From sequence record PQ850610.1: a DNA stretch of 64,000 nt; one strand, 5' to 3'. The notes under the pieces were generated by a model, which was not told the origin of the DNA, searched no databases, and worked only from the letters and a program-made list of their open reading frames with translations. This document shows, one piece after another, positions 26,248 to 38,103 of the stretch. Origin of the DNA: Escherichia phage JacquesWildberger_Bas92. How positions within the stretch are numbered: position 1 is the first letter of the stretch; every line of letters starts with the position of its first letter. A program made the translations under genes and the position numbers.

Positions 26248-27421
<1,174 letters not shown>

Positions 27422-35208: not shown

Positions 35209-35865
35209 TTAATTATTCCAAGTAGTTGATAAGGCTTTCCAAGAGATAGGATAAAGTTTCTTCATTTCTTCATCAATAGTTTGTGCAAACAGTCGGACCT
35301 CATACTGAGCGTGCTCTGACAGACGTTGACGGCACACATCTGACCAGCCATATAGAGAGCCAGTCCACACCCACTCAGTGATCATCCCCTGAGGAAGAAC
35401 AAATCGAGCTTGCTCTGGTGCAACAAATTCAATCAACTTATCATATGCTGCTAGAGAGGATTCATATGCATCGTTAATCAGCATTAATGCTTCAGCTCGT
35501 TCTCCATCGATGAGTTGAATCCCTGAACCTGCATGGAGGTCCGAAGGTCTCGCAAAAATCTCTTTAGGGATGAAGACTTCAACTGCTCCATCTTTATACC
35601 GACGGGACATTTCGTTCCACGAGAATCCAACCTGATGCTTGCCCAGCTGTCTCGCAATTGCGATAGGTGCTTTGCATCGGAAACTGACTTGTGGGTGTCG
35701 GAATGGAGTAACATGCTTTTCTCTTGCGAGGAAGTTGATGAGACGTTCATCACGTTCATTTAAATCACCTTCACGGGTTACGCCAAAGGAAACTCGAGCT
35801 GCGTTTACTACGCTACGATCGCTTCCCATAGCTTCGATTAATGTTGCTTGTAGTTGTTCATTCAT
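35209..35865 (-). CDS. ThyX-like (flavin-dependent thymidylate synthase family) with altered signature motif
   Basis: 218 aa; conserved ARVSFG, TPF.H, KAPI.IARQ and SxxSxRY blocks, but the RHR signature reads KHQ. Confidence 0.7.
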   Translation of the reverse strand: MNEQLQATLIEAMGSDRSVVNAARVSFGVTREGDLNERDERLINFLAREKHVTPFRHPQVSFRCKAPIAIARQLGKHQVGFSWNEMSRRYKDGAVEVFIPKEIFARPSDLHAGSGIQLIDGERAEALMLINDAYESSLAAYDKLIEFVAPEQARFVLPQGMITEWVWTGSLYGWSDVCRQRLSEHAQYEVRLFAQTIDEEMKKLYPISWKALSTTWNN

Positions 35866-35880
35866 CCGTGAATATCCTTA

Positions 35881-36156
35881 TTATTTATTGCTCAGTGCTG
35901 TGTCCAAAAATGCTTTCAGGTTTGCTTCAGTCTGCATACCAGAGAGGCTGTAATGTGCGCCACTATTCCGGTCAGGCACAACGAAAGCAGGAATGCTTCG
36001 TACACCATACTTAACAGCTTGTTCACGACCGTCACCCTCAAGGATATTAATCTCTTCCACTTCTACATCGAACTCCTTAACAACCTTCTCAAAGATAGGA
36101 GCCATTGCTTTACATGGAGCACACTGATCACTATAAAACTTAATTACTTTAGACAT
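35881..36156 (-). CDS. thioredoxin
   Basis: 91 aa; CAPC active site in thioredoxin-like context. Confidence 0.75.
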   Translation of the reverse strand: MSKVIKFYSDQCAPCKAMAPIFEKVVKEFDVEVEEINILEGDGREQAVKYGVRSIPAFVVPDRNSGAHYSLSGMQTEANLKAFLDTALSNK

Positions 36157-36401: not shown

Positions 36402-36965
36402 TTAGTAAGACACATCACCACTTGAGTGGGACATGTTGCTCTTGACGAAGTAGCAATACTTGCCAAGACCTTCATTGATTTCTTGAAGCATACTTTGATC
36501 GACTGGATAAGTGGCTAAATCGCCATCAAACTCATCCATCTTCTCAATAATACACATCAAGGTCATGCACATATCAGAGAGCATACCGTCCATGTCTAGA
36601 TCAGCGTTACCCTCTGAGAACCAAGCATGAGAGAGGTAGTTAGCTGCTGTAGCATCCACTTTAACACAGTGGTAACGCATACGTTCAGCAATACGATCTC
36701 CTACTTGTCGTGCGTAATCTTCCAGCTCGTCAAACATACCATGAACACCCTGAAATCCTGCACCAGAGACGTTCCAGTGGTAGTTTTTAGCTTTGATGTG
36801 CAAGAGTTCCATATTAGCTTGTAAGCAGCTCAGGATGTGTTCTAGGCTGTTTCCGCTAATCATGCCTTGCATTGTTTCAAGGCGAGAGATTGAAAGCTCA
36901 GACCGGTCTAACATGCTGTAGCTGTCACGACCAATCTCAGGTAAATCAAAGACATTCTTATGCAT
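36402..36965 (-). CDS. Dps-like ferritin-family protein
   Basis: Motif KAKNYHWNVSGAGFQGVHGMFDE..IAER resembles the Dps signature; start set at ATG 36965 (GGAGAAA upstream; overlaps upstream stop). Confidence 0.55.
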   Translation of the reverse strand: MHKNVFDLPEIGRDSYSMLDRSELSISRLETMQGMISGNSLEHILSCLQANMELLHIKAKNYHWNVSGAGFQGVHGMFDELEDYARQVGDRIAERMRYHCVKVDATAANYLSHAWFSEGNADLDMDGMLSDMCMTLMCIIEKMDEFDGDLATYPVDQSMLQEINEGLGKYCYFVKSNMSHSSGDVSY

Positions 36966-37287
36966 TTGGGTTTTCTCCATCAAGTTCAACTGAGTTAGCA
37001 ACGTTACGTGCAATATTGTCCATTACCTGCTGGGTAATTACGATGCAGTTCTGTGGGTCTACTGACTTAGAACGCCCCATTTCTGGGTCATACACCTTAA
37101 CACGCTTAGCAGTTGAACCTGTAACCTGAAGAACCTTCAACAGATATCCCTGATTACCGATAGACCAAGCAACAACATCACGATTCTTGATAAAGCGACC
37201 AAGCATATCACGATGATAAAACTGTTGCATCACCTTGGATTTTGTAATCTCTTCAGTGGGCGGGGCCACTTTACTCAAATCTAACAT
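36958..37287 (-). CDS. hypothetical protein
   Basis: 109 aa ORF; AAATGTATA (1 mismatch to TAATGTATA) at 37327-37335 upstream. Confidence 0.45.
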   Translation of the reverse strand: MLDLSKVAPPTEEITKSKVMQQFYHRDMLGRFIKNRDVVAWSIGNQGYLLKVLQVTGSTAKRVKVYDPEMGRSKSVDPQNCIVITQQVMDNIARNVANSVELDGENPNA

Positions 37288-37569: not shown

Positions 37570-38103
37570 TTACACACCTTTAGATGCAACTACACCTTCA
37601 GAGTTATTATAACGACCCTTCACTGCATAGGAATGCTCCCCTGCATGAGAGTGCTCAAACATGACCATCTGACCAACACGCATACCAGCACGAACTCGTA
37701 AGCTGTGGTGCTTTGTTACGTTATGAAATTCAAATGTCAGCTTACTGCTATTAAATCCAGCGTCTGCCCACCCAGCGTGGAGGTGGTTCAAACCACAACG
37801 AGCCATAGATGAACGCAGGACAAACAGGCTTGAAATGTTATCTGGAAGGTTAAACTCCTCCATAGAGTGAGCCAAGAAGAACTGACCCGGAGTGATAACC
37901 AAACCCTCTTCAGGAATTTTTACTTCCTTCCACTGAAGATTCTCTTTCGCATCAATATCAACGATGCCATCAGCCTGTTCTTCAACAAGGATAGTATCAC
38001 CAATACGGATATCCACACTAGCAGCGTTAACATACTTATGCTCCGCATCCAGATAGCCATTGTCAATTACATCATGCAGTTCAATACTTCCTAGTAAACT
38101 CAT
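37570..38103 (-). CDS. dCTP deaminase
   Basis: 177 aa; SVDIRIGD, LRSSMARCGL and GRYNNSEGVVASK blocks parallel E. coli Dcd. Confidence 0.75.
   Translation of the reverse strand: MSLLGSIELHDVIDNGYLDAEHKYVNAASVDIRIGDTILVEEQADGIVDIDAKENLQWKEVKIPEEGLVITPGQFFLAHSMEEFNLPDNISSLFVLRSSMARCGLNHLHAGWADAGFNSSKLTFEFHNVTKHHSLRVRAGMRVGQMVMFEHSHAGEHSYAVKGRYNNSEGVVASKGV

Follow-up and report, generated by a model that had tools for sequence, protein, structure and literature searches.

The motif R-H-R-x7-S has been treated as defining the ThyX family of flavin-dependent thymidylate synthases (FDTS), and the mechanistic and structural work consulted here concerns enzymes that carry this Arg-His-Arg (RHR) triplet. 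A stretch of 64,000 nucleotides from Escherichia phage JacquesWildberger_Bas92 (PQ850610.1; hereafter the window), a Kuravirus-like coliphage of the Gordonclarkvirinae, encodes a ThyX homologue in which the triplet reads Lys-His-Gln (KHQ), and raises the question of whether such a protein still makes deoxythymidine monophosphate (dTMP), makes a different product, or is inactive. The comparisons below place the protein in a large and apparently viral lineage, for which we use our own name, SRRY-type, and suggest that it is probably a functional flavin-dependent thymidylate synthase making dTMP, with a re-wired flavin/phosphate site.

The thyX open reading frame (ORF) is intact and single, running from 35865 to 35209 on the minus strand, and the plus-strand translation is riddled with stops. 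It begins with ATG, preceded by a Shine-Dalgarno sequence (AAGGA) about 10 nucleotides upstream, and ends with TAA. The 218-amino-acid product scores 150 bits against Pfam PF02511 (cutoff, 24.8), covering profile positions 1 to 190 of 191, and 127.3 bits against the equivalog model TIGR02170 (cutoff, 87.9), and matches the thymidylate synthase family phrog_85 with an E value of 3.2e-64. Matches in the Protein Data Bank (PDB) include the ThyX proteins of Thermus thermophilus (7.5e-30) and Thermotoga maritima (5.5e-25), at 30 to 33% identity to canonical ThyX. The AlphaFold2 (AF2) monomer model has a mean predicted local distance difference test score (pLDDT) of 88.8 and a predicted template modeling score (pTM) of 0.84. 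In a Foldseek search with this model the top 50 matches are all ThyX (E values of ~2e-16), and the template modeling (TM) score to T. maritima FDTS is 0.76 to 0.80 (~0.79). The gene product is thus a ThyX-family member, at variance with the family hallmarks compared here only in R-H-R-x7-S and in the arginines that bind the phosphates of flavin adenine dinucleotide (FAD). It is 100% identical to the copies in phages LAMP and AidaStucki_Bas93 and 92 to 94% identical to those of phiEco32, SU10, NJ01, and others.

The landmarks of ThyX that an earlier note on this DNA had listed are all present, namely, ARVSFG (residues 23 to 28), TPFRH (53 to 57), KAPIAIARQ (65 to 73), GKHQVGFSWNEMSRRY (75 to 90), and RLSEHAQ (181 to 187), with the correction that the serines are spaced as S-x4-S-R-R-Y and not as S-x-x-S-R-R-Y. 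The central observation of that note, a ThyX-family protein with RHR replaced by KHQ, is borne out by both profiles and by HMMER and MAFFT alignments. HMMER alignment to the T. maritima (Tm) and T. thermophilus proteins sets K76, H77, and Q78 opposite Tm R78, H79, and R80. The phage segment ARQLG-KHQ-VGF-SWNEM-SRRY, compared with ARQWF-RHR-IA-SYNEL-SGRY in T. maritima, also has a loop that is longer by one residue between the triplet and the first motif serine (KHQ-VGF-S versus RHR-IA-S). The pattern R-H-R-x7-S therefore fails, the phage protein reading K-H-Q-x8-S. The note had considered that the arginines might be present at shifted positions; HMMER and MAFFT both give K, H, and Q at the RHR site, with no arginine hidden by a simple shift, and the sole relocated arginine is the extra one of S-R-R-Y, R88. 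A PDB search with a 41-amino-acid peptide covering the motif returned no chain with this motif, the best match being T. maritima ThyX (E = 7.5e-4).

In the wider alignment, the protein differs further from T. maritima ThyX at G89 (R88), N163 (S170), and R165 (Y172). The residue at the R88 site is Gly in T. maritima (G89), Gln in Mycobacterium tuberculosis (Mtb) and PBCV-1, and Ala in PolB. Both arginines that bind the FAD phosphates (Tm R80/Mtb R97 and Tm R165/Mtb R190) are absent, with Q78 and Y172 in their places. The codons of K76 and Q78 are each one transition short of an arginine codon (AAG to AGG and CAG to CGG). The M. tuberculosis numbering was mapped with what we take to be the sequence of that enzyme, through which Q78 presumably corresponds to Mtb R97, Y172 to Mtb R190, and T53 to Mtb S71; the mapping agrees with every residue number in PMC6514825.

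The remainder of the active site is conserved. Tm H53, R74/Q75, E86, S88, R90, Y91, E144, R147, and R174 correspond to H51, R72/Q73, E85, S87, R89, Y90, E151, R154, and R181 of the phage protein. In an alignment of 149 members of the clade (129 of the best 150 representatives at 50% identity plus 20 close relatives), the equivalents of all of these except Tm R74 are each conserved in at least 143 sequences. The substrate loop Ser-x-Arg-Tyr and its upstream Glu (E85, S87, R89, and Y90) are each kept in at least 147, R154 and R181 in all 149, H51 in 146, and Q73 in 143. As judged from these alignments, all dUMP-binding or -activating residues are retained (dUMP, deoxyuridine monophosphate), and the losses, R80 and R165, are mainly FAD-phosphate ligands.

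This distinction depends on what the replaced residues do in solved ThyX enzymes. ThyX enzymes are homotetramers that bind FAD, and each active site is assembled from three subunits. In FAD, the RHR triplet, joined by Ser71 and Arg190 (Mtb) of the neighboring subunit, hydrogen bonds the AMP phosphate, the flavin mononucleotide (FMN) phosphate, and the ribityl, and its first arginine also touches the isoalloxazine and dUMP; R165 of Helicobacter pylori (Hp) ThyX shares the FAD-phosphate role of Mtb R190 (PMC6514825). In PolB complexes, the residues that bind the nucleotide phosphate are R82/H83 (the counterparts of Tm R74/Q75), S96, A97, R98, and R166; R86, the first arginine of RHR, contacts the ribose O3' (PMC5003785). 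The earlier note, in having both arginines contact the phosphate of dUMP, is thus no more than partly right: these two studies assign the triplet to FAD phosphates and ribityl, and to ribose, whereas R78 and R80 are given as dUMP hydrogen-bonding residues elsewhere (PMC3498832). As to the R88 site, Ala97 of PolB, which occupies it, contacts phosphate (PMC5003785), and the side chain of Gln89 of PBCV-1 ThyX can enter the dUMP-phosphate pocket (PMC3498832). Within the family, phosphate-binding arginines are found at nonequivalent sites, as Mtb R87 aligns to Tm I70 and PolB R82 to Tm R74, which gives the idea of a relocated arginine a precedent. The alignments would fit a move of the phosphate-binding charge from R80 and R165 to R88. 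The R88 position is, we presume, also annotated as an FAD contact in UniProt/HAMAP.

The substitutions are not peculiar to one phage, and their recurrence far exceeds chance. KHQ is present in 120 of the 120 nearest clusters at 90% identity (55% to 87% identity to the phage protein), and the full motif pattern is present in 117. In the clade alignment the first motif position is K in 125 sequences and R in 23, and the third is Arg in only 2 (P0233 and P0234), leaving 147 without it. The 8-residue spacing to the motif Ser, in place of 7, occurs in 132 of the 149, the extra Arg of S-R-R-Y (the column of Tm position 89) in 142, and an Arg in the Tm R165 column in none; Gly80, in the remodeled loop, is invariant in the lineage. 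Two clade patterns match at least 600 stretches in IMG/VR. Motif counts made on 80 IMG/VR loci and three earlier loci gave 82 matches, which read KHQ (70), KHK (10), or KHT (2) and have S-R-R-Y in every case. Lys is encoded by AAG in 49 and AAA in 33, and Gln by CAG in 38 and CAA in 32. Given that K and Q are one transition from Arg codons and yet both synonymous codons of each are in use, the identities are selected and not frozen; by this measure, purifying selection holds K, H, and Q in place while their codons turn over synonymously.

Among GenBank phages sampled, this package recurs in viruses as diverse as Pakpunavirus PPAT, Barbavirus, Vibrio phage Vp_R1, an N4-like Klebsiella phage, jumbo phage SonariX, Bacillus phage 276BB001, Streptomyces phage BoomerJR, SP-15 (gp9), and the T7-like Roseobacter phage CRP-118. 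The lineage extends to many marine T7-like podoviruses. At all four positions of the package, the reverse holds for T. maritima, M. tuberculosis, mycobacteriophage L5 (gp48), and cyanophage S-TIP37. When the clade patterns were run against 185,579 prokaryotic species, one genome apiece, only two contigs came back, of 526 and 1,983 nucleotides. The SRRY-type lineage is thus apparently a large branch, seen here only in viruses and in many phage groups. A literature search retrieved no paper describing or testing an SRRY-type ThyX, the lineage being known by the database annotation "thymidylate synthase" only; judged from these sequences, it is a previously uncharacterized branch in which KHQ is not a product of decay. 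The R-H-R-x7-S "ThyX motif" (Myllykallio 2002) served as an inclusion filter for sequences in an evolutionary study (PMC2826268), and filtering of this kind may explain why the lineage was overlooked.

Two clade homologues carry apparent inteins within the ThyX motif. The insertion of P0121 (480 amino acids) separates ...KHQSGF from SWNERSMRY; it starts with CLTGDT... and ends with ...VVHN before the Ser. In P0188 (380 amino acids) the insertion directly follows ...GVINE. A related variant, R-H-T ... S-R-R-Y, is present in P0156, a 318-amino-acid ThyX encoded on a 559-kb contig (JACCDX010832861) of GCA_013572995.1, an assembly of >800,000 contigs that looks eukaryotic. Its flanking genes encode VWA, AAA, and 'Branch' glycosyltransferase proteins, neighbors that suggest a copy of the lineage from a eukaryote or a giant virus.

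The protein would make dTMP from dUMP, methylenetetrahydrofolate (CH2-H4folate), and reduced flavin, and so supply thymidylate for a phage of 42% G+C (42.3% in the window) in a host of ~51% G+C, with no dihydrofolate reductase (DHFR) needed. Deoxyuridine nucleotides are likely supplied by the phage dCTP deaminase, and the route would run from this enzyme through the host dUTPase to ThyX, a conventional way to increase dTTP. In the cofactor-phosphate site, rebuilt according to this scheme, the first Arg has mostly become Lys, the third is lost (Gln here), the loop is longer and has an invariant Gly, and the second FAD-phosphate Arg, provided by the neighboring subunit (Tm R165/Mtb R190), has given way to Tyr. 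The new Arg88 would then take over phosphate binding, of the FAD pyrophosphate and/or the dUMP phosphate, with FAD as the predicted cofactor and dTMP as the predicted product. The suggestion of altered binding in the earlier note is on this scheme a good idea, applied to the flavin and not to the substrate.

Several points weigh against such an assignment. Two to three FAD-phosphate ligands are missing, and compensation by Arg88 is what the alignments suggest, while all solved ThyX structures are of the RHR and S-[G,Q,A]-R-Y types; searches of the literature and the PDB found no SRRY-type member that had been assayed or crystallized. The Gordonclarkvirinae are, moreover, reported to be remarkably resistant to restriction-modification (RM) systems, and no modification pathway is known for them (PMC11990801), which leaves room for a noncanonical nucleotide in these phages, and the 29 EcoRV sites of the window are not avoided.

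Canonical ThyX proteins (T. maritima TM0449, M. tuberculosis Rv2754c, and PBCV-1 A674R) share with the phage protein the fold, H53, ARQ, E86, S88, R90, Y91, R147, and R174, and the same reaction is expected; the phage protein departs from them in RHR to KHQ, a spacing of 8 and not 7, S-[G/Q]-R-Y to S-R-R-Y, N163 to S, and R165 to Y. L5 gp48 and the cyanophage S-TIP37 protein are likewise phage ThyX proteins within a nucleotide-metabolism module, but they keep RHR, S-Q-R-Y, and the R165 equivalent. Because these two are canonical, carriage by a phage does not by itself explain KHQ, and phages hold two ThyX lineages. L5 gp48 had been considered as a characterized phage ThyX of the same type and proved to be a canonical RHR protein. 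PolB (PDB 4P5A), the UMP/dUMP C5-methylase of polyoxin synthesis, is a ThyX homologue of altered specificity and served as the reference for contacts to the nucleotide phosphate and ribose. Its specificity is set through Loop 1, Loop 2, and Tyr99/124/126, of which Tyr124 and Tyr126 control access for UMP, with a T. maritima-like FAD pocket kept (PMC5003785), whereas in the phage protein it is the FAD-phosphate ligands that are altered. The phage protein is closer to T. maritima ThyX (5.5e-25) than to PolB (6.8e-15), PolB being compared by overall similarity only.

The missing ligands could also mean that dTMP is made under another cofactor regime, with a weakly held flavin, FMN, a diffusible reduced flavin, or a donor other than NADPH. 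We consider this unlikely, though it deserves some weight: the lost residues are exactly those described as hydrogen bonding to FAD at its AMP and FMN phosphates (PMC6514825), so that the ADP half would be unclamped without R80 and R165; the 81-83 loop is remodeled by the added residue around Gly80; and phage ThyA homologues that now work with a loosely bound, FMN-like flavin provide a precedent (PMC13326640). Small thiol-disulfide oxidoreductase genes also lie directly upstream of thyX in the window phage, Barba15S, and CRP-118, but such adjacency is not general (about 2 of 80 IMG/VR loci) and can be explained in most phages by ribonucleotide reductase (RNR). Both H77 and the T/S that matches Mtb Ser71, itself a ligand of the FAD phosphates, are retained, and the gained Arg88 could restore the lost charge. 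That the whole viral SRRY-type lineage makes dTMP but binds its flavin differently, or uses another one, is unlikely in the same measure. A catalytically dead ThyX fold, retained for binding dUMP or flavin or for regulation, would accord with the loss of the RHR motif and of a further FAD ligand, and the earlier note had allowed for an inactive paralogue. This is very unlikely, because the window encodes no other thymidylate synthase homologue and KHQ is under purifying selection. SRRY-type proteins are the sole thymidylate synthases of other complete phage genomes as well, the clade shows no variation at any other catalytic residue, inteins inside the motif of some members are typical of essential active sites, and the curated equivalog model TIGR02170 is matched above its cutoff; we regard a dead enzyme as the least credible of the readings considered.

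The other suggestion of the earlier note, an altered pyrimidine substrate or product, would make the protein a neofunctionalized enzyme that yields a noncanonical 5-substituted dUMP, such as 5-hydroxymethyl-dUMP, or another pyrimidine that feeds an antirestriction DNA modification. The RM resistance of the Gordonclarkvirinae lacks a known mechanism and the authors of the BASEL study suspect covalent modification (PMC11990801); the phage carries amidoligase, glutamine-amidotransferase, ATP-grasp, and gamma-glutamyl cyclotransferase (GGCT) genes, and amidoligase and glutaminotransferase domains of such kinds lie beside thymidine-hypermodification genes in viral metagenomes (PMC8989533). Enzymes of the ThyA family in phages have had their chemistry switched by one or two active-site changes (PMC13326640): in T4 dCMP hydroxymethylase and the RB69/DLP3 5-hydroxy-dCMP synthase, few ThyA substitutions change the substrate, product, and cofactor. 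ThyA has an unrelated fold and mechanism, however, and the changes there affect base-recognition and water-exclusion residues, which stay unchanged in the phage ThyX; the 5-hydroxycytosine study was rejected as a ThyX precedent, as it deals with ThyA homologues only (PMC13326640). Within the ThyX family itself, a hydroxymethylase has been hypothesized for gp130 of SP-15, a phage with two Thy1-family genes and hypermodified thymine (PMC5977210). By alignment, the Ser-x-Arg-Tyr loop, R147, and most of the motif residues (nearly the whole ThyX motif) are gone from gp130, whereas the window protein keeps all of them; a long C-terminal extension is a further mark of the gp130 type. The other SP-15 protein, gp9, is also SRRY-type (K-Y-R ... 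N-E-A-S-R-R-Y) and is assumed by its authors to be an ordinary thymidylate synthase (PMC5977210). The substitutions in the window protein fall at cofactor-phosphate ligands, away from the uracil C5/O4 and the folate site, and R181 (Tm R174), the reader of uracil O4/N3, is intact together with all phosphate and ribose ligands. As the catalytic residues on the uracil, phosphate, and folate sides are intact, a changed pyrimidine substrate or product finds no positive support. Hundreds of unrelated phages also share this motif package, among them minimal T7-like genomes where only RNR, MazG, and dCMP deaminase surround the gene. Neofunctionalization is therefore improbable in our view, and markedly more so than a change of cofactor. 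Its most specific form, in which the Gordonclarkvirinae ThyX would release a 5-substituted deoxyuridylate (such as 5-hydroxymethyl-dUMP, formed when water captures the exocyclic-methylene intermediate) and so seed a thymidine modification behind RM resistance, is more improbable still by a small measure. With the restriction resistance unexplained, a different ThyX product is an unlikely but possible outcome.

The restriction sites of the window bear on the same question. Counted on both strands, CCWGG occurs 8 times where ~160 are expected, and PstI (CTGCAG), KpnI (GGTACC), and SacI (GAGCTC) sites are absent where ~34, 20, and 33 are expected, while GATC, EcoRV, SspI, DraI, HpaI, and NdeI sites are at their expected frequency. 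Such avoidance implies natural exposure of some sites to restriction, which argues against a protective modification seeded by ThyX. Similarly, the termini of phiEco32 were mapped by restriction profiling and subcloning (PMC9965538), so DNA of the phiEco32 group can be cut and cloned.

The thyX gene lies in a codirectional block that encodes PhoH, the Nlig-Ia domain, ThyX, thioredoxin, a Dps/ferritin-like protein, dCTP deaminase, a nucleotidyltransferase, and replication proteins (Table 1). The operon with thioredoxin, dCTP deaminase, and a ligase-Ia-like gene described in the earlier note is confirmed, with all genes on the same strand and gaps of 15 nucleotides from thyX to the thioredoxin gene and 2 nucleotides to the Nlig-Ia gene. 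Within the 64-kb window, no homologue of ThyA, dUTPase (Dut), or DHFR was found, leaving ThyX as the sole thymidylate synthase homologue there. A deoxynucleoside monophosphate (dNMP) kinase is represented only by an 87-residue truncated match (26251-26511, minus strand) to the 176-amino-acid ORF annotated 'deoxynucleoside monophosphate kinase' in Bas93 (L007:30405-31321), and for this reason the ThyX product probably must suit the host thymidylate kinase (Tmk), a further point against a modified nucleotide. The N terminus of the Bas93 ORF is unlike that of a P-loop kinase, and its annotation may be unreliable; the 'GTP-binding domain' gene beside it is absent from the window.

Table 1. Position of thyX, of its diagnostic codons, and of neighboring genes in the window
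Feature	Position	Strand	Evidence
thyX coding sequence, SRRY-type flavin-dependent thymidylate synthase, 218 amino acids	35209..35865	minus	ORF list, PF02511, TIGR02170, PDB, AF2/Foldseek
K76-H77-Q78 codons (AAG CAT CAG), at the RHR site	35632..35640	minus	sequence and alignments
S87-R88-R89-Y90 codons; S, second R, and Y are canonical dUMP recognition, R88 is the clade-specific extra Arg	35596..35607	minus	
Y172 codon, site of the FAD-phosphate Arg Tm R165/Mtb R190	35350..35352	minus	alignments
Thioredoxin-fold gene (CAPC), directly upstream of thyX, same operon	35881..36156	minus	PF00085 3.5e-13; NCBIfam matches under equivalog cutoff
Stand-alone DNA-ligase Ia-like (Nlig-Ia, NAD+-binding) gene, 118 amino acids	34850..35206	minus	PF22745 2.5e-35; phrog_6466
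dCTP deaminase	37570..38103	minus	PF22769 3.6e-34; TIGR02274 107.6 bits (cutoff, 92.8)
Dps/ferritin-like protein, between thioredoxin and dCTP deaminase	36402-37013	minus	Pfam Ferritin 2.9e-07; 'DNA binding protein' in Bas93
'Nucleotidyltransferase', 433 amino acids, adjoins dCTP deaminase	38113-39414	minus	phrog_12715 strong; PolyA_pol head-domain 18.9 bits (cutoff, 23)

The neighbors of thyX in other viruses were surveyed in 80 diverse IMG/VR loci, where they were identified as look-alikes by inspection of representative sequences, without a Pfam family search. The commonest are RNR (34 loci), T7-like primase-helicase (33), family-A DNA polymerase (32), MazG (13), and an adjacent dCMP deaminase (8). 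Nlig-Ia and thioredoxin were considered as general partners of ThyX and rejected, since Nlig-Ia accompanies it in none of the 80 loci and thioredoxin in one, as does dCTP deaminase; a genuine thioredoxin or glutaredoxin gene lies within 3 kb of an SRRY-type thyX in about two. Three unrelated phages nevertheless have such a gene directly upstream of thyX, namely, the window phage, Barbavirus Barba15S (L090:1-28), and CRP-118 (L098:38971-39210). The window phage shows no annotated RNR. In the complete 41-kb genome of CRP-118 the SRRY-type ThyX is the only thymidylate synthase, with RNR, MazG, and glutaredoxin alongside, a gene set that is a classic dTMP-supply module.

A normal product is thus the most probable outcome, and the variant would still surprise a ThyX enzymologist, in that a large viral lineage has systematically swapped RHR and a second FAD-phosphate Arg and gained another Arg. 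Should these enzymes prove active, as the evidence suggests, the set of ThyX residues accepted as essential would have to be revised, the lineage would be a natural experiment on how a flavin is held and reduced, and ThyX inhibitors and annotation rules based on RHR may not carry over. The gene is also a candidate for the restriction resistance of the Gordonclarkvirinae, though the evidence here points away from this.

Other genes of the block have features of their own. The Nlig-Ia protein, which starts 2 nucleotides past the thyX stop codon, is without an adenylation domain and is called 'DNA ligase' in the records of related phages. The Dps/ferritin-like gene is unusual cargo for the replication module of a podovirus. 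The 433-amino-acid nucleotidyltransferase has no match in NCBIfam and only a subthreshold one to the PolyA_pol head domain; its pairing with dCTP deaminase has been put forward by the BASEL authors as a possible DNA-modification module (PMC11990801). Upstream of the replication module, Bas93 has a cluster (L002:15628-18711 and L008:96-4739) encoding a gamma-glutamyl cyclotransferase, a RimK-like ATP-grasp protein, a GlmS-like glutamine amidotransferase, an amidoligase, and a COOH-NH2 ligase, the equivalent of which in the window would lie at approximately 41.9 to 49.1 kb.

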